Shown: piece after piece, positions 1,721 to 27,281 of the stretch
How the letters are laid out: each line of letters opens with the position of its first letter
How positions within the stretch are numbered: the stretch's first letter is position 1
From: Psychrobacter sp. HD31
GTDB taxonomy: Bacteria > Pseudomonadota > Gammaproteobacteria > Pseudomonadales > Moraxellaceae
DNA: 32,000 bases
NCBI RefSeq assembly: GCF_051097895.1
Contig: NZ_CP142525.1
Location: 1,590,001 to 1,622,000 of the forward strand
Reading direction: 5' to 3'
Notes under the pieces: model-generated
Told to the model about the DNA's origin: nothing
Databases searched by the model: none
What the model saw: only the letters and a program-made list of their open reading frames with translations
Program-made: the position numbers and the translations under genes

Positions 1721-3208
1721 TCAACCCTTCCTCAACACCGCATAATAAAAGCCATCGCCACCACTTTTATTCAAGTCACCATCTATTGGCAAACATTGGC
1801 GTCCAACTGCTTGTTCAATGCCCCAATCTGCATTAATTTTAACCTCATTGGCATCGCTATGGTCTGCCAAAAACGCCAACATTTGGGTCTCGTTTTCATC
1901 TTTTAAAATAGAGCAAGTGGCATAAATCAAAACCCCGTTTGGTTTTAATTGTTGCCATAAGTTTTGCAAAATCTGTTTTTGCAGGCTTACCGTTTGTTCT
2001 ACATCATCTTCTTGACGAAGCAAACCAATATCAGGATGGCGGCGCATAACCCCTGTTGCCGTGCATGGCGCATCTAACAAAATAACATCAAACTGCTCAG
2101 TATTTTCTGTATCTGCTTGCCAACTGGTGGCATCAGCACAAATTAGCAATGCCTCATCAGTTAGTGCTAAACGCGCTAAAGTTTGCTTACTGCGTTCTAA
2201 TCTATTTGCCTCGCTGTCAATTGCCGTGAATGTGAGTTTAGACGGCGCCTCTGAATGAATCAACTTGACCTTATCATTGCCTGTTTTATCCACCCCAATT
2301 TTTTTGGCAACAACAGGGGTGATGTCTGTTTTGTCAAACAGCTCTAAACAATGCGCCAGCTTGCCACTTGGTGCGGTGCACGCATCTAATATGTGCAAAT
2401 GATTGTTAGGGTTGTTTGCAAGCATATCCTGAGCAATGGTTTTAACCATGCTACCTGCAATACTGGCATGCGCGTCCTGTACGCTCACCATACCGGTATC
2501 AAAGTTTGGTAGGTTAGAGATAGATTGAGACTGTGTTAGGCGGATAGGGCTTATAACGGCTTCTTGATTGTCATTAAGCCCATTTAAAGCAGTTGATAAC
2601 GTAAGTATCTCATGCTCTATTTCGGTTTGTTGTAGCTTATGGGCATAATCTTGCAAGCCTGACTGGCGGGCATTGACACGCAAAAACATGGGGGCAGGCA
2701 CACGTATGCCTTTGCATAACTCGTTATATTGGTCTCGCCAATCTTGTTTTAGCTGTTTAGCAAGCCAGTTTGGTAGGCTGTGTTTTTTATCGCAGGCTTT
2801 ACGGTACTTAGCTGGGTTTTTGGCAACTTTACGTAATATGGCATTGACCAAACCTGATGCACGCTCAAAGCCCAGTTGTTTAACCGATTCTACTGTTTCA
2901 AAAATTGAGGCATGGTCAGCCGTTTCAAGATAAATGAGCTGAGTAATGCCCACTTGAATGGTGGTACGAACCTCTATTTCGTCAATGGGCTTGTCGGCAA
3001 GGCTATCTAATAAGCGGGCAGTTGCGTGCCAATGGCGCAGGCTGGTAAGCAATAGGTTATGTACAAAACCTTTGCTATTTTCTGCCACTTCTGCCAGCAA
3101 GCCATCAAGCATGTTGCTAAGTGACAACCCCTGCTGGACGTTAATCAGGGTTTTTATCACCGCTGTGCGTGAATTATCTGTGTTGGTTGGGGTGTTTGGT
3201 GTTTTCAT
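1721..3208 (-). CDS. rsmB: 16S rRNA (cytosine967-C5)-methyltransferase RsmB/Sun
   Basis: 495 aa with an N-terminal NusB-like region. SAM methyltransferase motifs are present: ILDACTAPSGK, LLDAPCTATGVMRRHPD and YATCS. It lies immediately downstream of fmt on the same strand, the classic fmt-rsmB order. Confidence 0.93.
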   Translation of the reverse strand: MKTPNTPTNTDNSRTAVIKTLINVQQGLSLSNMLDGLLAEVAENSKGFVHNLLLTSLRHWHATARLLDSLADKPIDEIEVRTTIQVGITQLIYLETADHASIFETVESVKQLGFERASGLVNAILRKVAKNPAKYRKACDKKHSLPNWLAKQLKQDWRDQYNELCKGIRVPAPMFLRVNARQSGLQDYAHKLQQTEIEHEILTLSTALNGLNDNQEAVISPIRLTQSQSISNLPNFDTGMVSVQDAHASIAGSMVKTIAQDMLANNPNNHLHILDACTAPSGKLAHCLELFDKTDITPVVAKKIGVDKTGNDKVKLIHSEAPSKLTFTAIDSEANRLERSKQTLARLALTDEALLICADATSWQADTENTEQFDVILLDAPCTATGVMRRHPDIGLLRQEDDVEQTVSLQKQILQNLWQQLKPNGVLIYATCSILKDENETQMLAFLADHSDANEVKINADWGIEQAVGRQCLPIDGDLNKSGGDGFYYAVLRKG

Positions 3209-6798: not shown

Positions 6799-6812
6799 AA
6801 ACCTGGCTTAAT

Positions 6813-6826
6813 GTTTCATGTGAAAC
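6813..6826. repeat. 14-bp palindrome GTTTCA-TG-TGAAAC (copy 1)
   Basis: It has 6-bp perfect arms and a 2-nt spacer. The surrounding 18-mer ATGTTTCATGTGAAACTT (6811-6828) is identical to 14214-14231. Confidence 0.8.
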
Positions 6827-6852
6827 TTAGTGTTAATGATTGGTTTAAGTTA

Positions 6853-7678: not shown

Positions 7679-8296
7679 ATGCAAGTAGAACAAAAAATAA
7701 GTGAGATTGAAGTAGATAAAGAGATAGCCAGCTTATTTGAGCCGTTACTAGGTGATACTGAACATTTAATTTGGACAGGTCAGCCAAAGCAGGGTTTTGT
7801 TTTACGATTGTCAGATTTATTATTTTTCCCTTTAATGATTTTTATATTTATTTTTGCAGCGTTTTTATTATACATTTCTGTTAGTACAACGGATGGTATG
7901 GCAGTTACAGCGATATTTTTTCTATTTTTGTCAATCTCGATATTATATTCTAGATTAGTGGGTGATATTAAACGTAGAAAACAAACATATTATGTTCTGA
8001 GTAATCATCGAGTATTTATTCGTCAAGACTATCCGAAAGAGTTGCCTATAATAATTAGATATGAAGATTTACAAAGATTGGATCTAGTACAACAAGGTTC
8101 GGGATACGGTAAGATTTTATTAGATTATGTTGGTAAAGGGAGTCGTTTTTTAGCAAGCAGATATAATCAAGATGCTGCTTATCAAGCAATGGGTGCAAAA
8201 CGGCTTGAAGAAACGCCTGCATTCAAAGATATTGAAAACGCTCAAAAAGTTTATGACATTATTAAAACTTATAAAAATCAAATTAGTCGAAATTAA
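7679..8296 (+). CDS. Membrane protein with two TM helices and a bacterial PH-like (YdbS/YdbT-type) C-terminal domain
   Basis: 205 aa with two hydrophobic helices (LLFFPLMIFIFIFAAFLLYI and AVTAIFFLFLSISILY) followed by RRKQTYYVLSNHRVFI, as in bPH/DUF304-type proteins. The gene is visibly AT-rich and sits between the grpE terminator and the dnaK promoter. Confidence 0.55.
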   Translation: MQVEQKISEIEVDKEIASLFEPLLGDTEHLIWTGQPKQGFVLRLSDLLFFPLMIFIFIFAAFLLYISVSTTDGMAVTAIFFLFLSISILYSRLVGDIKRRKQTYYVLSNHRVFIRQDYPKELPIIIRYEDLQRLDLVQQGSGYGKILLDYVGKGSRFLASRYNQDAAYQAMGAKRLEETPAFKDIENAQKVYDIIKTYKNQISRN

Positions 8297-13050: not shown

Positions 13051-14181
13051 TTAATCAAACAAATCACTTAACTTATCAAAAAATGATTTCTTCTGCGGCG
13101 ACTGTTTATGGGAGTTATCGCCATCTAAACTATCCTGAAACTGTTTTAATAGCTCTTTTTGTTCCTTGTTTAGGTTAACAGGGGTTTCAACAATCACACG
13201 GCAAATTAAATCACCTTTCATGCTGGTACGTACTGGGGTAACGCCTTTGCCACGCACACGCAATAACTTACCACTTTGGGTGCCTTCAGCAACTTTAATT
13301 TTAACCTTACCATCAAGGGTTGGTATTTCTACCTCTTTACCTAGCGTTGCATCGGCAATGCTTACTGGTACATCCATATACAGGTCTGCGCCCTGACGAG
13401 TGAATACACTGTGAGGTTTTACACGTACTTCTACAAACAAATCGCCATTTTGTACACCAGCACCACCGGCTTCACCTTCGCCAGCTAAGCGAACACGGTC
13501 ACCATCATCTACACCAGCAGGTATGCTAACTTCAAGGGTTTTAGACTTGTCTTTAACACCGCTACCATGGCAAGATTTACATGGATTTTTAATTTGTTTG
13601 CCAGAGCCACCACAAGTAGGACAGGTTTGTTGTACAGCAAAAAAGCCTTGCTGCATACGCACTTGACCCTGACCATGACAGGTGCCACATGTCACCACAT
13701 CGGATGGGTTTTCTGCACCTTTGCCATCACAAGTTTCGCAGGTTGCAGGGGCGGTAAAAGTGATTTCTTTCTTGCAGCCTTTAACCGCTTCTTCAAGTGT
13801 TAAGTCTAGCACATAGCGTAGGTCAGACCCACGGCGAGCTCTGCCGCCACCGCCACCACGTTGTTGACCAAAAATATCGCCAAAACTGCCAAAAATATCG
13901 CCAAAAATGTCATTAAAATTACCAGCACCGCCAAAACCGCCGCCGCCCATGCCGTTTTCAAAGGCTGCATGCCCCATACGATCATAAGCCGAGCGTTTTT
14001 CGGCATCGCTTAATACTTCATAGGCCATTGATGCTTCTTTAAATTTTTCTTCTGCTTCGGCATCATCTGGGTTACGGTCTGGGTGGTATTTCATTGCTAG
14101 CTTGCGGTAGGCACGCTTAATGGTCTTTTCATCAGCGTTTTTATCTACGCCCAAGACTTCATAAAAGTCACGCTTGCTCAT
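13051..14181 (-). CDS. dnaJ: Molecular chaperone DnaJ (Hsp40)
   Basis: 376 aa with a J domain carrying HPD (KYHPDRN), a Gly/Phe-rich region, and four CxxCxGxG zinc-finger motifs ([32 protein letters not shown]). Confidence 0.97.
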
Positions 14182-14215
14182 GTTTGAGTTTCTCCTATTA
14201 CTTAGTTGGCAGGAT

Positions 14216-14229
14216 GTTTCATGTGAAAC
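14216..14229. repeat. 14-bp palindrome GTTTCA-TG-TGAAAC (copy 2)
   Basis: The sequence is identical to 6813-6826. It lies 35-48 nt upstream of the dnaJ start codon, downstream of the predicted sigma-32 promoter. Confidence 0.8.
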
Positions 14230-14294
14230 TTTAACATCACTTATGCTATTTTAAGTAAAATAAGTCGTTGTAAAATTGATATAAGTTGGCATAT

Positions 14295-17987: not shown

Positions 17988-19535
17988 TTAACCACGGTAA
18001 CTTAACGCTTCGGTTAAATGCGGTGTTTGAATTTGTTCACTTGCTGCTAAATCAGCAATAGTGCGAGCAATGCGTAAAACACGGTGATAACCCCGTGCCG
18101 ATAAGTTTAAACGACTTTGTGCAGTTGCAATCAGTTGTTTTTCGGTATCGCCAAGCTGGGCAATGTCATCTAACTGGGCAGGCGTTAACTCATTATTGGC
18201 TTTGCCTTGCCGATTAATTTGACGCTCATAAGCCAATACCACGCGCTCGCGGACAACGGCAGAAGTTTCACCTGCTTTGGCGTTTTGTAAGTCACTAATG
18301 GGTATGGCTGGTACGTTGATGTGTAAATCAATACGGTCAAGTAAAGGCCCCGATAGTTTGTCTTGATAACGTTGGATTTGTTCTGGTCGGCAATTGCATC
18401 GGTTTGATGTATCGCCGTGGTATCCGCATGGGCATGGGTTCATAGCTGCAATGAGCTGAAAGTTAGCAGGGAAAGTTGATTGCTGATTGGCACGGCTAAT
18501 GGTAATGGTTTTAGACTCGAGTGGCTGGCGTAAAACTTCTAATACTTTGCGGTCAAACTCTGGCATCTCGTCTAAAAATAGCACACCTTTATCTGCCAAA
18601 GTTATTTCGCCAGGTTTGGGGCGAGAGCCACCGCCAACAAGCGCAACCGCACTGATGGTGTGATGTACTTCCCTAAATGGGCGTGTACCAAAATCATATT
18701 CTGTATTTGCTACCGAATAGGTGCTCGCAACCTCTAATGCCTCATCGTCTGTCAGTTCTGGCAAAATGTTTGGCAAACGAGATGCCATTAATGTTTTGCC
18801 AGAGCCAGGAGGACCTTTAAATAAAATAGAATGTCCACCAGCTGCTGCTATTTCTAAAGCGCGCCTTGCGTGGTGTTGTCCTTTAACGTCTGCTAAATCT
18901 ACTTTATAGGCAGCGTGTCTTTGCGGCAAATTTGCTACAAAGGGTTGTAAAATTACATCTGCTGTATTGTTACCAAAATTAATCCCACCATGCTGTGCTT
19001 GTAAGTGGTTGCATACAGCCTGCAAGTTTTTAGCGCCAAGTACACTTACCCCTTGTACTCGGCTGGCTTCATTTGCATTGTTAAAAGGAACAATTAGATT
19101 TCTGGGCGTGTGTTCTTGCCCTTCTAAAGGCTTGTTTTTAGAGGTTTTAACGGCACGTGCAACGGCCAGACTCCCTGCCACAGGTCGCAGATCGCCATTT
19201 AAAGCAAGCTCACCAATAAACTCATAATTGTTGACCCAGTCTGGCTCTAGCTGACCACTGGCAGCCAATATGCCAATGGCAATGGGCAGATCTAGCCTTG
19301 CGCCATCTTTGGGTAAATCAGCAGGCGCAAGGTTAATTGTTAAACGGCGGTTAGGAAACTGGAACCCAGAATTAATAATGGCAGAGCGCACACGATCTTT
19401 GCTTTCTCTTACTGCGGCTTCTGGCAAACCAACAATGGTTAATGCTGGTAACCCTTGTGATAAATGCACCTCCACCATCACGGCTGGCGCATGCAAACCA
19501 ACAACCGAGCGTGTGTTTACTTGGGCAAATGACAT
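17988..19535 (-). CDS. comM: YifB/ComM family Mg-chelatase-like AAA+ ATPase
   Basis: 515 aa with an N-terminal Lon-protease-like fold, Walker A (GPPGSGKT), Walker B (LFLDEMPEF) and the Cys cluster CPCGYHGD...CNC. The gene is uninterrupted. Confidence 0.93.
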   Translation of the reverse strand: MSFAQVNTRSVVGLHAPAVMVEVHLSQGLPALTIVGLPEAAVRESKDRVRSAIINSGFQFPNRRLTINLAPADLPKDGARLDLPIAIGILAASGQLEPDWVNNYEFIGELALNGDLRPVAGSLAVARAVKTSKNKPLEGQEHTPRNLIVPFNNANEASRVQGVSVLGAKNLQAVCNHLQAQHGGINFGNNTADVILQPFVANLPQRHAAYKVDLADVKGQHHARRALEIAAAGGHSILFKGPPGSGKTLMASRLPNILPELTDDEALEVASTYSVANTEYDFGTRPFREVHHTISAVALVGGGSRPKPGEITLADKGVLFLDEMPEFDRKVLEVLRQPLESKTITISRANQQSTFPANFQLIAAMNPCPCGYHGDTSNRCNCRPEQIQRYQDKLSGPLLDRIDLHINVPAIPISDLQNAKAGETSAVVRERVVLAYERQINRQGKANNELTPAQLDDIAQLGDTEKQLIATAQSRLNLSARGYHRVLRIARTIADLAASEQIQTPHLTEALSYRG

Positions 19536-22024: not shown

Positions 22025-22046
22025 TCAAGGAAGCTTATTTAACGTT

Positions 22047-22078
22047 TAGGCATTATTTTCTGTTTTATGCCTATTTTA
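22047..22078 (+). terminator. Possible weak terminator after dapB
   Basis: TAGGCAT-13 nt-ATGCCTA followed by TTTTACGTTTTT. The stem is short and the loop is large. Confidence 0.35.
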
Positions 22079-22223
22079 CGTTTTTATTTTTGAAATTAGT
22101 ATAAATAACATTGAAGTACTCACACCGATTTTACCAATACTTATATTGGTTTTCGGTACTTGTATTTAAAACTTTTGTATAAAATTTAATTGTAAGATAT
22201 AAAAAATAAATGGATGACGGCTA

Positions 22224-22751
22224 ATGAAAAACGCATTACAAGCACAACTGCTAAAAGCAGGTTTAGTTGATAAAAAGAAAGCTAAAAAAATTAATAAGCA
22301 AACAGCCCATGCTAAACGAACAGGCGATGCTTCGGTTGATGAAGCACGCAAAGCGGTGGAAGAAGCAAAAGCCAAAAAGCTGGCAAAAGACCAACAGCTA
22401 AACAAGCAAAAACAGCAAGCGTTAGAAGAAAAAACGCTAAAAGCCAATATTGAGCAAATGATTAACCAGCATCAAATTGAGGATATAACTGGAGATGTTG
22501 AGTACCAGTTTGTTGATGGCACTAAGGTTAAAAAACTATATATTAACCAAAAAATGTATGACCAGTTAGTGGCAGGGCATCTGGTAATTGCTAGAAAAAA
22601 AGAGGGGTATGCTTTATTACCACACCCATTGGCAGAACGTATCAACCAAAAACAAGCAGGGTTTATTATTGAAACCGCCAATAAAAATGACACGCCAGCA
22701 GAAGATGACCCCTATGCTGCTTATGTGATTCCTGATGATTTGATGTGGTAA
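22224..22751 (+). CDS. DUF2058 (YaiL-like) basic protein
   Basis: 175 aa with the N-terminal LQAQLLKAGLVDKKKAKK and a Lys-rich region, as in the DUF2058 family. The last 9 codons are part of direct repeat DR1. Confidence 0.65.
   Translation: MKNALQAQLLKAGLVDKKKAKKINKQTAHAKRTGDASVDEARKAVEEAKAKKLAKDQQLNKQKQQALEEKTLKANIEQMINQHQIEDITGDVEYQFVDGTKVKKLYINQKMYDQLVAGHLVIARKKEGYALLPHPLAERINQKQAGFIIETANKNDTPAEDDPYAAYVIPDDLMW
22722..22749 (+). repeat. 28-bp direct repeat DR1 (3' end of the DUF2058 gene)
   Basis: TATGTGATTCCTGATGATTTGATGTGGT is identical to 23689-23716. It is followed here by the rest of a TAA stop. Confidence 0.95.
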
Positions 22752-22792
22752 ATAAGATAAAAGGTAAATTTATCTATATGTATCTTTTTATT

Positions 22793-23602
22793 TTAGAATG
22801 ACTTTATTTTCTTTTTTAAGTTCCAAGAGTTTAATTCACAATCACAATTATAAATTTCTATATTTTGGTTGTACCAACTGTTGATCAATGAATCGAACTC
22901 TTCTCTAGTGAGTAAGTTGGTTCTTGATATGTTTTTATAAATATTTTTACCTAAGTAAACTTCTGTTATTGCTCCCTTTGGTAGCGAAAAACAATACAAT
23001 GGTCTTCCTTCTATTCTTACAATATTAAAGTTTCCAAACCTTCCTTTAGAAGAGTGATAGGTTGAACCTAAATTACTAATTTTTTTAACAACTCTTACTT
23101 CTTCTTCATATGCCCACTCTGATGATTTATATAAAAACGCACGTTTTGCAAGATTAAAAAAATCACTTTGAAAGGAAATATGTTTACCAATACTGAGTAA
23201 CTCTTCTTCATTGATAATATTTAAATCATTGTTAGGTTTAGTTGATGTGTAAATAACTTCCCCCACTTGATAGGGAATAAAGTTTTCTGAAGTTGAGTTA
23301 AAGTTAGCTTTATTGACATCAATGCCAATTACCACACCTTTATGTGAATCGCCATAATGAGACCACATTAATGAATTTAATGGTTGTCTCGTTAGAGATA
23401 GAACGCCATAGTTTCTTGAAAACCTATTAAAGCAAGCATTTTTTGCAATAGAAGGTGTAAGTACTGAATTTGAATTTTCTTTAAAGCCATATGAAGTACC
23501 TTCAAATGGGTCGTTAAAGTCCTCTAAATGTGTAAAACCAATGGAAGATGTTTCAATAGCTTTTATCGCACCTGCTAATGACATGTATTTATATAAAATC
23601 AT
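22793..23602 (-). CDS. DUF2971 family protein
   Basis: 269 aa. The N-terminus LYKYMSL...FTHLEDFNDPFEG matches the DUF2971 signature (LYKY...FNDPFE). The gene is very AT-rich: 20% and 33% G+C in the two 60-nt lines I counted by hand, against 43-55% in dnaK and recG lines. Confidence 0.75.
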   Translation of the reverse strand: MILYKYMSLAGAIKAIETSSIGFTHLEDFNDPFEGTSYGFKENSNSVLTPSIAKNACFNRFSRNYGVLSLTRQPLNSLMWSHYGDSHKGVVIGIDVNKANFNSTSENFIPYQVGEVIYTSTKPNNDLNIINEEELLSIGKHISFQSDFFNLAKRAFLYKSSEWAYEEEVRVVKKISNLGSTYHSSKGRFGNFNIVRIEGRPLYCFSLPKGAITEVYLGKNIYKNISRTNLLTREEFDSLINSWYNQNIEIYNCDCELNSWNLKKKIKSF

Positions 23603-23688
23603 GACTTATCCTATGAGTACGGTTTCCTGTTTTCATTATAGTGTAAAAGTCCCAATCAATTTTAAATCAATGTATCTCATATATTGTA

Positions 23689-23716
23689 TATGTGATTCCT
23701 GATGATTTGATGTGGT
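23689..23716 (+). repeat. 28-bp direct repeat DR2 (orphan copy)
   Basis: The sequence is identical to 22722-22749 and is followed by the rest of a TGA stop. It lies 14 bp from the stop of the convergent MerR-family gene. Confidence 0.95.
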
Positions 23717-23731
23717 GATTTTGACTAAAAT

Positions 23732-24094
23732 TTAGTTATCTAATAACTTTTGGAAAGACTCGCATTCAAAGTGGTCTTTCTTTGGGCATTTTGCCATGTG
23801 TTGTAAGGTATCACTCACTTTGGCTAATTCTTCAATCTTTTTTTCTATTTCTTCTACCTTGTTTAATAAAAAGCACCTATCTAACAAATTGGTTTGGGTT
23901 AGGTGTTTTATCTCATCTAGCGAGAAGTGATTGCGTTTCAGTAAGCGAATTAACTGTAGCTTTTTAATAACACTTGCAGAAAAGGTTCTTCTTAAACCAT
24001 TGCGTCCATTGGATTTAATTAAGCCTACTTTTTCATAGTATCTTAATGCAGAAGGGGAAATGCCTGTTTGTTGTGCCACTTTACCTATATCCAT
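23732..24094 (-). CDS. MerR-family transcriptional regulator, CueR-like (C-X7-C loop)
   Basis: 120 aa with an N-terminal HTH (IGKVAQQTGISPSALRYYEKVGLI) and a long dimerisation helix (VEEIEKKIEELAKVSDTLQHMAK). The helix is followed by CPKKDHFEC, the same C-X7-C spacing as the CueR metal-binding loop (CPGDDSADC). Confidence 0.8.
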   Translation of the reverse strand: MDIGKVAQQTGISPSALRYYEKVGLIKSNGRNGLRRTFSASVIKKLQLIRLLKRNHFSLDEIKHLTQTNLLDRCFLLNKVEEIEKKIEELAKVSDTLQHMAKCPKKDHFECESFQKLLDN

Positions 24095-24170: not shown

Positions 24171-24213
24171 GTGACAATCAGATTGAATCAGGGCTACTTA
24201 AGTGGGTGTGCCA

Positions 24214-25026
24214 ATGCAAAATTTATTATTAGACGTATTTTCATATTTAAGTTTGGGTGCCGTTGTCGGTTTTTTGTCTGGTTTGTTAGGTGTGGGTGGT
24301 GGCGGTATATTAGTGCCCATTTTAGCAAGTATTTTTTCATATCGGTTTATTGGTGGTACAAATTACTTGCAGGTGGCGTTGGCAACCTCGTTAGCTTGCT
24401 CGATACCAACCACTGCTATGAGTACGTATACGCATCATAAAAAAGGGGCGGTGCAATGGCGTATTGTTAAATTTATGGGTGTGGGCGTTATTATTGGTTC
24501 AGGTGTTGGGGTAATGATTGCTACTAGGATACAAGGAGTGTATTTGGCAGCATTTTTTTGTTTATTTATGCTATTTGCAGCGATTAAGTTATTTTCTAAT
24601 TGGCAACCAAAACCAAAAACCACGCCTATTTCTATAAATACCACAGTGCTTACAGGTGCGGTTATAGGATGTGTGTCTGCGCTCATCTCTGTTGGTGGTG
24701 CATTTTTTACGGTGTTATATCTTACTTATAACAATGTTGAACTAAAAAAAGCGATAGGCACGTCTTCAGCCATTGGATTTTTAGCGGTACTGTTCTCAAC
24801 GGTTGGTTATGCGTTGTCTAACTCAACCAGTGCGGTTAAAATGCCTGCTTATAGTATGGGTTACGTGTATTTGCCGGCGGTAGTTTTGGTTGTTTTTGCT
24901 AGTTTGTTATTAGTGCCTGTCGGTACAAATATGGCGCATAAACTAGATGATAAAAAATTAAAAAAGATATTTGGTGTACTATGTATTCTGTTGAGTTTAA
25001 AAATGCTGGTATCTATGCTGCCATAG
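24214..25026 (+). CDS. TauE/SafE-family (sulfite exporter-type) permease
   Basis: About 270 aa and polytopic, with the Gly-rich motif GLLGVGGGGILVPIL repeated in degenerate form in the second half (SALISVGGAFFTV). The start is either the ATG at 24214 or the GTG at 24202. Confidence 0.8.
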   Translation: MQNLLLDVFSYLSLGAVVGFLSGLLGVGGGGILVPILASIFSYRFIGGTNYLQVALATSLACSIPTTAMSTYTHHKKGAVQWRIVKFMGVGVIIGSGVGVMIATRIQGVYLAAFFCLFMLFAAIKLFSNWQPKPKTTPISINTTVLTGAVIGCVSALISVGGAFFTVLYLTYNNVELKKAIGTSSAIGFLAVLFSTVGYALSNSTSAVKMPAYSMGYVYLPAVVLVVFASLLLVPVGTNMAHKLDDKKLKKIFGVLCILLSLKMLVSMLP

Positions 25027-25043: not shown

Positions 25044-27281
25044 TTACACATTAGTATATTTACTTGCATCAGGCATCCAGCGTTCAATCAGCAGGCTTAC
25101 GTCCGCTTTGCGGCTATTGTCTTGTATCAATCTTTTTGCCAACGCGCGGGCAATGGTTAGCAATAGTTCATCACGGGTTAAGTCACTGAGGTAATAGCCC
25201 ACATTGCCTGTTTGGCGTTTGCCTAACAGTTCACCTGGTCCTCTTATTTGTAGATCTTTTTGGGCAATTACAAAGCCATCGTTACTTTTGGCAAGTACGT
25301 TTAGGCGTTCTATCCCTGTTTCAGAAAGTGGCGTTTGGTAAAGCAGTACGCAAAAACTTTTTTCGCTGCCTCTGCCAACACGCCCACGCAGCTGATGCAA
25401 TTGCGACAGCCCCAAACGCTCGGCGTTTTCTATTACCATTAGCGATGCATTGGGCACATCTACGCCTACCTCAATTACGGTGGTAGATATAAGCAGGTCT
25501 AAATCTCCTTGTTTAAAGGTTTGCATGGTGGTTTGTTTTTCGCTTGGTTTCATTTTTCCATGCACCAAACCAATGCGTATGTCTAACCGTTCGCTGACAT
25601 CAGCAAAAGTCGCTTCGGCAGATTGCGCATCCAGCTCGCTGCTTTCTTCTACCAATGGGCAAACCCAATACGCTTGCTTACCTTGTTTGCAGTTTGCTTC
25701 AATGCGTTCTAGCACTTCGTCACGGCGGTTTCGGTCTATGGTTACGGTTTTAACGGGGGTACGCCCTGGTGGTAACTCATCAATAATAGAGGTGTCCATA
25801 TCGCCATAGGCACTCATGGCAAGGGTGCGTGGTATGGGCGTTGCTGTCATCACTAGTTGATGCGGTGTGCTGTTTGCCACGCCTTTGTTGGTTAATGCCA
25901 TGCGTTGCTCAACCCCAAAGCGGTGTTGTTCATCAATGATGGCTAACCCAAGTTTGGCAAATTTAACCTGTTCCTGAAACAATGCATGGGTGCCAACCAC
26001 AATCTGCACTTCGTTTTCACTAATGGCGGCTAGTGCTTCTTTACGTTCACTTGTTTTTTGTTTGCCTGCAAGCCACCCCACGCCAATGCCTAAAGGTTCA
26101 AACCAGTTTTTAAAGTTTATCAGGTGTTGCTCGGCAAGTATTTCAGTTGGTGCCATTATGGCGACTTGCCAACCGCTGTCTAACGCATAGCAAGCAGCCA
26201 ATGCCGCTACCAAAGTTTTGCCTGCGCCTACATCGCCCTGTACCAAACGTAGCATGGGTATGGAGGTGGTTAGGTCATTTTTTATTTCATTTACAACCCT
26301 TTGCTGTGCACCCGTTAGCGCAAATGGCAGGTTATCTAGTAGGTGCTTTGCAAGCGGGCTGCTACTTTCACACTTTGGTGCTTTGTGTTGATGCAACTGT
26401 TGGCGGCGGTACAACAGGCTTAGTTGATGGGCAGTTAGCTCCTCAATAATAATGCGCTGGCAAGCGGGGTGCTGGCGGTTTTTAATTTGTTCTAACAGCT
26501 CAAACTGGTTGGTTAAGTCGGTATGGTTAGGTGGGGTGTGTAGCAGGGTTAGTGCTTCAAATAGGCTTAGGTAGCTTATGGCGTGCGTACTGCTAATTTG
26601 TGCTTGGTTGTTTTGGTACCCTAAAAAGCTTGCCTGACTTACTTGTACTTTGGCTTGTACATTGGCTTGAGTAATAAGCGTTTGCCAATCTAGCGATTGC
26701 CAGTCAGTATCCTGAAAAATGCTGAGGATTTGCCCTTGTTTATCGTAGTTTTGTACTGTTTGTAGGGCAAGCTTTACAAGGGTGCGCAGTTTGTTTTGGT
26801 GTAAACCTTTAACCGTTGGGTAAATGGGTTGCAAGCCTGTGCTTTCCATCGTCATCCCAGCGGTTACCACTTGGTATTCTGGGTGGTGCATTTGCACGCC
26901 GTAGCGGCTTATTTTTACCTCGCCAAATACACGCAGTGTTGTGCCAACCATCATGGTTTGGGTTAGCCCGCGGTACACTTTAAAAAACCTGAGGGATACC
27001 GTGCCTGTGTCATCCTCTAACAGCACGCTCATGCCACCGCGGCCTTTGTTGTCTACGCTTACTATTTCACCCTCCACCAAGGCAGACTGCCCATTGGCAA
27101 GGGTGTTTATGTTGACGACACGGCTACGGTCTTCGTAGTCTCTTGGCAGATGCAAAACCAAGTCAAACAAACGCTTTATGCCAAGCTGTGCTAATTGCTC
27201 GGCAACTTTGGTGCCAACGCCAGCTAAGCTGGTTACAGGCATATCAAGCGGGTTTGGTTTATTTGATTGCATATTTGGCAT
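25044..27281 (-). CDS. recG: ATP-dependent DNA helicase RecG
   Basis: 745 aa with an N-terminal wedge/OB region and helicase motifs GDVGAGKT, DEQHRFGV and QLRGRVGRG. A Gln-rich insertion lies between the wedge and helicase domains. Confidence 0.95.
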   Translation of the reverse strand: MPNMQSNKPNPLDMPVTSLAGVGTKVAEQLAQLGIKRLFDLVLHLPRDYEDRSRVVNINTLANGQSALVEGEIVSVDNKGRGGMSVLLEDDTGTVSLRFFKVYRGLTQTMMVGTTLRVFGEVKISRYGVQMHHPEYQVVTAGMTMESTGLQPIYPTVKGLHQNKLRTLVKLALQTVQNYDKQGQILSIFQDTDWQSLDWQTLITQANVQAKVQVSQASFLGYQNNQAQISSTHAISYLSLFEALTLLHTPPNHTDLTNQFELLEQIKNRQHPACQRIIIEELTAHQLSLLYRRQQLHQHKAPKCESSSPLAKHLLDNLPFALTGAQQRVVNEIKNDLTTSIPMLRLVQGDVGAGKTLVAALAACYALDSGWQVAIMAPTEILAEQHLINFKNWFEPLGIGVGWLAGKQKTSERKEALAAISENEVQIVVGTHALFQEQVKFAKLGLAIIDEQHRFGVEQRMALTNKGVANSTPHQLVMTATPIPRTLAMSAYGDMDTSIIDELPPGRTPVKTVTIDRNRRDEVLERIEANCKQGKQAYWVCPLVEESSELDAQSAEATFADVSERLDIRIGLVHGKMKPSEKQTTMQTFKQGDLDLLISTTVIEVGVDVPNASLMVIENAERLGLSQLHQLRGRVGRGSEKSFCVLLYQTPLSETGIERLNVLAKSNDGFVIAQKDLQIRGPGELLGKRQTGNVGYYLSDLTRDELLLTIARALAKRLIQDNSRKADVSLLIERWMPDASKYTNV

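Follow-up and report, generated by a model that had tools for sequence, protein, structure and literature searches.

For the DUF2971 protein family (PF11185), an anti-phage effect has been shown experimentally in Aristaios, a single-gene system of the lactococcal plasmid pUCCL641_199 in which DUF2971 is the sole recognized domain and which blocks phages with an abortive-infection phenotype (PMC11381338). The PDC systems, among them the likewise single-gene unit PDC-S31, were put forward as candidates on the basis of "guilt by embedding" and are untested (bioRxiv 10.1101/2024.01.29.577857). A published classification also places DUF2971 among the ADP-ribosyltransferase families, near DarT and AbiGi, and describes a conserved tyrosine, an ExE motif, and a poorly conserved motif I histidine (PMC12522546). 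Here, we analyze a DUF2971 gene of Psychrobacter sp. HD31, located in a stretch of 32,000 nucleotides (contig NZ_CP142525.1, positions 1,590,001 to 1,622,000 of the forward strand) that we call the window and number from its first letter. The gene lies alone between two perfect 28-bp direct repeats that duplicate the end of a DUF2058 gene, in a gap between DUF2058 and recG whose content differs among relatives. Neither the gene family nor a variable gap of this kind is new. The flanking repeat is a real acquisition scar, and it is better explained by recombination than by a new mobile element.

Gene gain of this kind has described parallels. Homology-facilitated illegitimate recombination (HFIR) has been described in Acinetobacter (a sister genus of Psychrobacter, where it was established), Pseudomonas, and Streptococcus, and rhs and type VI secretion system (T6SS) loci contain orphaned 3' ends; in 3'-end displacement, as seen in rhs, contact-dependent inhibition (CDI), and Vibrio T6SS effector-immunity arrays, a segment anchored upstream brings in a new gene end with cargo, and the old end is orphaned (PMC5361080). 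In Acinetobacter and Legionella genomes, transformation favors the gain of short segments in spots whose flanking core genes recombine (PMC12359135). The minimal mobile elements of Neisseria are defined as differing whole-gene content between two conserved genes, without mobility genes, that could be exchanged by transformation and flanking homology (PMC3787668).

The repeat and the segment that it encloses comprise the following features:

22224 to 22751, plus strand: DUF2058 gene, 175 aa (Pfam PF09831, 196 bits), the left conserved border of the variable spot.
22722 to 22749, plus strand: direct repeat copy 1 (TATGTGATTCCTGATGATTTGATGTGGT), encoding ...YVIPDDLMW; the AA that follows yields a TAA stop.
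22750 to 22792, no strand: AT-rich spacer of 43 nt between the convergent DUF2058 and DUF2971 stops, read directly from the letters.
22793 to 23602, minus strand: DUF2971 gene, 269 aa, the sole cargo (PF11185, PDC-S31, phrog_1762).
23603 to 23688, minus strand: upstream region of the DUF2971 gene, 86 nt, with AGGA at 23612-23609 and TATAAT at 23640-23635.
23689 to 23716, plus strand: direct repeat copy 2, an orphan DUF2058 3' end; the GA that follows yields TGA, and the MerR open reading frame (ORF) ends 15 nt further on.

The 28-mer TATGTGATTCCTGATGATTTGATGTGGT is present exactly twice in the window, both times on the plus strand and with 0 mismatches (28/28), and it appeared in 0/100 dinucleotide-preserving shuffles. 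Copy 1 constitutes the final nine codons of the DUF2058 gene and runs into TAA. Beyond the 28 nt, the similarity of the copies is weak, with 5/9 positions matching upstream and 7/13 downstream (12/22 together), and a TATnnTGnn similarity precedes both. The occupied-site junction at copy 2 reads ATTGTA, then the 28-mer, then GATTTTGAC; GCTGCT in place of ATTGTA would mark DUF2058 joined directly to merR. Copy 1 with the cassette and part of copy 2 was found in independent metagenome contigs (L039-41 and L146), and copy 2 joined to merR in another (L149); as these contigs come from several samples and carry the same structure, the repeat is not an assembly artifact. Direct reading revealed no dyad symmetry in the 28-mer, and comparison by eye with the dif consensus as generally known revealed no dif-like arms. 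An earlier note on this DNA, made from the letters alone (the original prediction), had described perfect 28-bp direct repeats, with copy 1 encoding the last codons of DUF2058 and the copies running into TAA and TGA, all of which we read in the sequence. It placed the end of copy 2 at 14 bp from the convergent MerR gene stop; the convergence holds, and the distance is corrected to 15 nt from copy 2 to the MerR ORF end, or 13 nt from the TGA to the MerR stop codon. Its suggestion that copy 2 is the original gene end is not demonstrable: the stop of DUF2058 is TAG in the relatives, TAA at copy 1, and TGA at copy 2.

The segment between the copies spans 939 bp (22750-23688), or 967 bp with one repeat included, and carries a single gene on the minus strand (ORF 22793-23602; 60.6 bits to PF11185), as had been predicted. 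The G+C content is 29.3% for the segment and 30.1% for the DUF2971 gene, compared to 40.5% for the window; the gene has the lowest value in the window, the 25 other ORFs averaging 41.3% (z = -2.8). Between the repeats, no recombinase, transposase, or ORF with a database match other than the DUF2971 gene was detected; a Pfam search of the neighboring genes yielded no recombinase, and the window contains no tRNA, tmRNA, or Rfam element that could be an integration target. The low G+C content and the lack of a recombinase in the 939 bp and among the neighbors thus agree with the original prediction. Its picture of a cassette wedged between conserved genes applies on the left, where DUF2058 is conserved, but not on the right, where the neighboring MerR gene is rare and has no relative above 55% identity.

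The genes to the right of copy 2, up to the far border of the spot, are:

23732 to 24094, minus strand: MerR-family regulator, 120 aa (Pfam MerR_1, MerR, and MerR-DNA-bind), a co-resident accessory gene.
24202 to 25026, plus strand: TauE/SafE-family permease (tauE), 274 aa (PF01925, 165 bits, aligned to residue 268 of 274).
25044 to 27281, minus strand: recG, the right conserved border of the variable spot (RecG Pfam families on record for orthologues).

Relatives were found by protein searches and contig look-ups; a scan of genome contigs with the DUF2058 protein gave only distant relatives, with at most 44% identity. Among the relatives that share the dapB-DUF2058...recG neighborhood, the gap between DUF2058 and recG exists in at least five states:

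Allele (a), the window: DUF2058, copy 1, DUF2971, copy 2, merR, tauE, recG.
Allele (b), L146, 97% identical: copy 1, full-length DUF2971, and 15 nt from the start of copy 2, which run into TATTTTGTTGAG... (the final 43 nt of tauE).
Allele (c), L039-41, ~95% identical, three samples: as (b), with a 285-nt in-frame deletion in DUF2971.
Allele (d), L042/43 and L150/51, ~87% identical, two metagenome-assembled genomes: gap empty, with DUF2058 ending in TAG, a tauE remnant, and recG.
Allele (e), L044-46 and L147, 85-90% protein identity: DUF2058 ending in TAG, then an unrelated small signal-peptide ORF.

The existence of alleles with an empty site and with alternative content shows that the cassette was inserted into a spot of variable content. 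Allele (d) has one copy of the 28-mer, with one mismatch. In allele (e), the ORF (158 aa in L044) is followed by recG in L044-46, and L147 ends inside it; this allele has no second copy of the 28-mer. In more distant Psychrobacter, DUF2058 lies between ackA and pta. The DUF2058-recG gap is therefore a strain-variable spot of a known type, and its five haplotypes without mobility genes match the anatomy of a minimal mobile element, for which exchange by flanking homology would be a candidate mechanism here; such elements are not defined by flanking direct repeats. The original prediction of a horizontally acquired single-gene insertion is upheld by the low G+C content and by these alleles: the empty site that it proposed to look for is found as allele (d), and the DUF2971 gene is not present at this position with normal composition throughout the clade. 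Of the alternative cargo that it anticipated at the same 28-bp site, allele (e) provides the other ORF but not the second 28-mer copy.

Several of these alleles have decayed. Allele (b) lacks ~1280 nt, from halfway through copy 2 up to the end of tauE, a deletion that removed merR and nearly all of tauE. The deletion in allele (c) lies between two TGAGTAA repeats (22909 and 23194) and removed residues 135-229. Short-repeat deletions, at 7-nt or weaker similarities, are thus demonstrably active at this locus, and two successive deletions, from (a) to (b) and then to (c), give the simpler order. Allele (b) was considered and rejected as the primary insertion product, given that a precise re-insertion of merR-tauE would then be needed to give allele (a). 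Neither merR nor a full tauE was found in any related locus, and the last 43 nt of tauE (24984-25026) persist beside recG in L042 (6531-6590), L150, L039, and L146, all of which lack the gene. The Pfam TauE model aligns this remnant as the native C-terminus, which shows that tauE once had a wider distribution at this spot and was repeatedly lost. The left breakpoint of the remnant (immediately before TATTTTGTTGAG) is nucleotide-identical in the cassette-bearing alleles (b) and (c) and in allele (d), which is empty and comes from a species ~13% divergent. It is unlikely that two independent deletions share one breakpoint; either recombination exchanged the right-hand part or the haplotypes have a common history.

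The dapB-DUF2058 intergenic region is variable as well. It consists of 199 nt (22025-22223) with ~27% G+C in the window and in L039; in other relatives (L042 5600-6000, L044 3467-3827, and L045 2032-3468), this region contains an ORF of 102-108 aa and, in L045, an additional gene for a 356-aa RDD-domain protein.

For the origin of the repeat, we rank first, tentatively and at a little short of an even chance, HFIR with 3'-end displacement, that is, one-sided homologous plus illegitimate recombination that would have left a displaced gene end behind. DNA of a close relative, carrying a DUF2058 end with a TAA stop and a convergent DUF2971 gene, would have recombined homologously upstream, in DUF2058 or dapB. 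Its far end would have joined illegitimately 28 nt inside the resident DUF2058 end, and the resident end (28 nt plus TGA) would have been pushed downstream as an orphan, next to merR. Such a route would need neither a recombinase nor a specific site. The different stops after the copies, TAA and TGA, would be expected of copies derived from two alleles of that end. The arrangement expected of HFIR, a full gene contiguous with cargo and an orphan 3' end downstream, is seen not only at DUF2058 but also at a second gene of the window:

1721 to 3208, minus strand: rsmB, the second gene-end duplication in the window.

The last ~255 nt of rsmB and the hairpin downstream of them (together 1686-1976) recur at 29-319, ~92% identical over ~290 nt. 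The copies are ~1.66 kb apart, and the far one is an orphan with an in-frame stop. The enclosed cargo (320-1685, 1.37 kb) consists of two ORFs convergent to rsmB, one PNPOx-like (432-920) and one of 149 aa (1197-1646), with no recombinase between the repeat copies. Because its topology is the same as that of the DUF2058/DUF2971 locus, the rsmB case points to scars of illegitimate recombination over an origin from att sites. Compared to the displaced ends of rhs, CDI, and T6SS loci, the two cases in the window share the lack of a recombinase, a naturally transformable host family, and the recurrence of orphan ends. They differ in that the ends are identical or near-identical ends of housekeeping genes and not variable toxin tips, in that the orphan at DUF2058 measures only 28 nt, and in that the cargo there is a convergent accessory gene with no new toxin/immunity pair; the mechanism would be recognized from anatomy alone.

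Several observations weigh against this origin. Among the retrieved relatives, there is no allele of the donor type (DUF2058-TAA-DUF2971 without copy 2), and the exact empty allele DUF2058-TGA-merR was not retrieved, its only hint being the place where contig L149 ends. The similarity at the presumed site of illegitimate joining is 5/9 nt, barely above chance. The perfect 28/28 match with its sharp edge at the stop codon also fits an att core. Natural competence is known in general from Psychrobacter and Moraxellaceae, and HD31 itself is presumed to share it; the ComM/YifB-type gene at 17988-19535 is not diagnostic of transformability.

Integrases classically enter the 3' ends of genes and regenerate the gene, and the att-type crossover favored by the original prediction is the main competitor of HFIR, possible although unlikely. 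Under this alternative, a small integrative element, or a trans-mobilized non-autonomous one resembling cis-mobilizable elements (CIMEs), would have carried the last 28 nt of DUF2058 in its attP, the two copies would be attL and attR, and the recombinase would have been lost or would be encoded elsewhere. What stands of this idea is the identical core at both junctions, perfect over 28/28 positions and ending exactly at the stop codon, with the gene kept intact by a replacement stop and weak extra similarity on both sides (12/22 positions). What does not stand is the enzyme, the symmetry, and the reuse of the site: no recombinase is present in or beside the 939 bp, which has no room for one; the 28-mer has no dyad symmetry; a single copy of it is found in L042-L047; and a second copy of the gene end occurs in 0/43 DUF2058 loci. 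In that scan of 43 loci, by which the DUF2058 end was rejected as a recurrent att site, the sole match was a 12-13-mer in two Marinomonas genomes, located inside another gene and dismissed as a chance coding match (PDDL). The 28-mer is also absent from 2.9 million viral contigs, which, together with the low identity (at most 48%) of the gene homologues there, led us to reject a phage or viral origin of the site. Flanking repeats exceed background in none of 37 other DUF2971 loci, the attC repeats of integrons excepted, so that they were rejected as a property of DUF2971 genes, and the rsmB orphan end (~290 nt, 92%) is likewise without a recombinase. A XerCD/dif module, brought to mind by the 28-bp length, was rejected on the lack of dyad symmetry and of dif-like 11-bp arms. 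One contig bears on excision: L149 (Logan SRR29889421; locus 1775-1817) is identical to the window over recG-tauE-merR and ends exactly at the outer edge of copy 2 (window 23689). In an assembly graph with k = 31, a branch would be expected at this point if the sample held alleles both with and without the cassette, and the end is compatible with coexisting occupied and precisely empty alleles; it is a weak hint, and the same k-mer reasoning applied to other contig ends (L146) gave no consistent fit to an excision model. It would be a long shot to take the 28-mer for a true attachment site, where an enzyme encoded elsewhere inserts a 967-bp recombinase-less "defense cassette" into the 3' end of DUF2058 and excises it again. 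If that were the case, it would define a new class of single-gene mobile modules targeting gene ends, with the duplication at the rsmB end as the second example and the end of L149 as a sign of ongoing precise excision.

Other routes that do without a recombinase, namely a Campbell-type crossover with a circle bearing DUF2971 and ~28-37 nt of the DUF2058 end, or microhomology-mediated template switching that re-entered 28 nt upstream, appear less probable than the att-type crossover, although they are not outlandish. Single crossovers of circles duplicate the shared segment, and duplications of 109-950 bp from single crossovers of circular molecules are documented in E. coli (PMC3240628). The TATnnTGnn similarity that precedes both copies and the slippage-type deletions active at the locus are in line with such routes. 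A shared segment of 28 bp is, however, at the lower limit for RecA-dependent crossover, there is no known source of the circle except excision from a copy already flanked by repeats, and no plasmid or phage with this cassette was found, the homologues on such replicons being less than 50% identical. It is very improbable that the cassette is a transposable element or an integron cassette with the repeat as its target-site duplication, even though homologues of the same subfamily are cassettes in other marine bacteria (L069 and L070, with attC-like repeats). No terminal inverted repeats join the cassette ends and no transposase is present, and 28 bp is far above known transposase duplications (2-14 bp for insertion sequences and miniature inverted-repeat transposable elements), so that both classes of element were rejected. 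The 43 nt between stop and repeat contain neither attC nor RYYYAAC/GTTRRRY cores, and integron insertion duplicates nothing; an integron cassette in the window was therefore rejected too, despite the cassettes of L069 and L070. CIME-like elements share with the window a small recombinase-less cargo between direct repeats that duplicate a gene end, and integron cassettes share the small recombinase-less cargo and include relatives of the DUF2971 gene, but the window has no cognate integrase, attC, site reuse, or evidence of excision. A chance match or an assembly artifact has next to no probability and is refuted by the shuffles (0/100) and by the same structure in independent assemblies.

The protein encoded between the repeats belongs to the DUF2971 family. 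It matches PF11185 with 60.6 bits (cut-off 22), residues 79-171 covering the whole 89-position model, and matches phrog_1762 (E = 1e-45) and all five PADLOC models of PDC-S31 (E from 2.2e-26 to 5.1e-6). We identified 672 homologues (E <= 1e-3), mostly single-domain proteins of ~270 aa from marine Gammaproteobacteria; the host genera include Vibrio, Vreelandella, Alcanivorax, Photobacterium, and Psychrobacter. The nearest homologue outside the HD31 lineage is 72% identical and has another chromosomal context. In tblastn searches, relatives were detected on 297 plasmids, among them plasmids of Klebsiella, Enterobacter, Acinetobacter, and Aliivibrio, and in 9 phage or phage-plasmid records, one of which is SSU5; the plasmid and phage homologues are less than 50% identical, and those on viral contigs and in phages at most 48%. 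In almost all of 37 homologue loci, the G+C content of the gene is below that of its flanks.

Some homologues (~48-54% identical) reside in integron cassette arrays, in L069, L070, and probably L059. Imperfect attC-like repeats of ~100 nt, with CTAAC...GTTAGC cores and the spacing of cassettes, lie on both sides of the DUF2971 homologue (L070 58-161, 961-1073, and 1703-1817; L069 1776-1860 and 3227-3311).

An alignment of 39 sequences revealed the invariant residues W80, H82, Y83, K153, F156, L157, K159, and E166-E167-E168-x-R170, the last forming the YEEEVR (ExE) motif conserved in the DUF2971 family. The catalytic motifs of ADP-ribosyltransferases are thus represented by the ExE glutamates and the aromatic residue of motif II, with the motif I histidine replaced (LYKY). 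AlphaFold (AF2) produced a confident model (predicted local distance difference test [pLDDT] 88.4, predicted template modeling [pTM] score 0.88), and the top fold matches in the PDB were DarT (7yk3_C), followed by Tpt1 (tRNA 2'-phosphotransferase), both of the ADP-ribosyltransferase fold. The model and fold search proposed in the original prediction thus place DarT first, albeit with a weak match.

The protein is most likely a stand-alone, toxin-like, ADP-ribosyltransferase-like anti-phage effector that would modify nucleic acid or an essential protein upon infection. This role is suggested by the mobility of the family, which travels alone on plasmids, prophages, and integron cassettes, and by the phage-blocking activity of the distant Aristaios; whereas family membership is established, the activity, target, and phenotype are predictions. 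The deletion in allele (c) takes out the invariant block, so that (c) would be a natural loss-of-function allele, the pattern expected of a dispensable, possibly costly gene; a cost of the DUF2971 gene is suggested by such alleles. Other observations speak against the proposed role. The match to DarT has an E-value of 5.5e-3 and a template modeling (TM) score of 0.26-0.30, and a sequence profile search against the PDB sequences found no solved relative. The gene is neither embedded in nor associated with known defense systems, its neighbors being dapB, DUF2058, merR, tauE, and recG. The protein also differs from Aristaios (269 versus 316 aa), which comes from a Gram-positive host and is distant, the relation being at the family level only.

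With Aristaios, the HD31 protein shares a stand-alone DUF2971 domain, a predicted ADP-ribosyltransferase fold, and the carriage of the family on mobile DNA; the anti-phage effect was measured for Aristaios, whereas the Psychrobacter protein is a candidate by sequence. The likeness to PDC-S31 extends to the single-gene organization and all five models; PDC-S31 was predicted by embedding, whereas the window gene adjoins no known defense system. DarT and the HYE clade resemble the window protein in the ExE motif (E166-x-E168) and in a block of aromatic residues and histidine (W80, H82, and Y83), but the structural match to DarT reaches a TM score of only ~0.3, no match to a solved structure is found at the sequence level, and the window gene has no adjacent DarG-like antitoxin gene. 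The original prediction of a candidate anti-phage gene, for which a search with PADLOC had been proposed, is consistent with the PDC-S31 matches; the gene can no longer be called undescribed, considering that DUF2971 corresponds to PDC-S31, Aristaios, and a published DarT-like family (PMC11381338, PMC12522546).

The locus adds a Psychrobacter member to the widespread but barely studied single-gene, ADP-ribosyltransferase-like defense candidates (DUF2971, PDC-S31, and Aristaios). Two orphan gene ends that flank small cargo within 32 kb may be a natural record of the machinery-free uptake of one or two genes at a time by a transformable bacterium. Should these scars prove genuine, ends of this sort could serve across whole genomes to count, date, and orient acquisitions; if the repeat is an att site instead, a new type of minimal mobile cassette would be defined.

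The DUF2058 protein is identical to WP_434352957.1 of Psychrobacter sp. HD31, and its orthologues in the same dapB...recG synteny are 85-92% identical; the amino acid identity of RecG is 86-97% in L039, L042, L044, and L046. The DUF2971 protein likewise has an identical counterpart in Psychrobacter sp. HD31. Exact matches of the MerR protein were found only in Psychrobacter sp. HD31 and in one metagenome contig (L149), the next homologue being 55% identical. PADLOC models gave only a weak helix-turn-helix match (mad1, E = 2e-7) for the DUF2058 and MerR proteins. Both noncoding parts of the cassette, the 43-nt spacer and the 86-nt upstream region, accompany the DUF2971 gene in L039-41 and L146. 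The spacer holds a 7-bp stem (AGATAAA at 22755-22761 and TTTATCT at 22769-22775) that may serve as a terminator. In the upstream region, AGGA lies six nt before the DUF2971 ATG on the minus strand. The original prediction had assigned the gene its own TATAAT and an AGGA Shine-Dalgarno sequence; both motifs are in place, but a promoter scan found promoter-like sites at the cassette no more often than in shuffles and did not list the TATAAT at 23640-23635. The promoter of DUF2971 is accordingly a putative one, proposed from its match to the consensus.

Elsewhere in the window, an ORF of 205 aa (7679-8296; 31% G+C, 19% at third codon positions) lies between the usually adjacent grpE and dnaK. It has only a sub-threshold match to the bacterial PH domain, no flanking repeat of at least 18 nt was found, and it is possibly a further small gene gained by acquisition. 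A direct repeat of 25 nt (6804-6828 and 14207-14231), its copies 88% identical, contains the palindrome GTTTCATGTGAAAC; it directly follows the RNase R gene and lies close to dnaJ, and could represent either a shared terminator or a repeated extragenic element. Within dnaJ (13051-14181, minus strand), a 21-nt tandem duplication at 13868-13909 (CCAAAAATATCGCCAAAA[C/A]TG, two copies) probably encodes a repeated Gly/Phe-rich segment.

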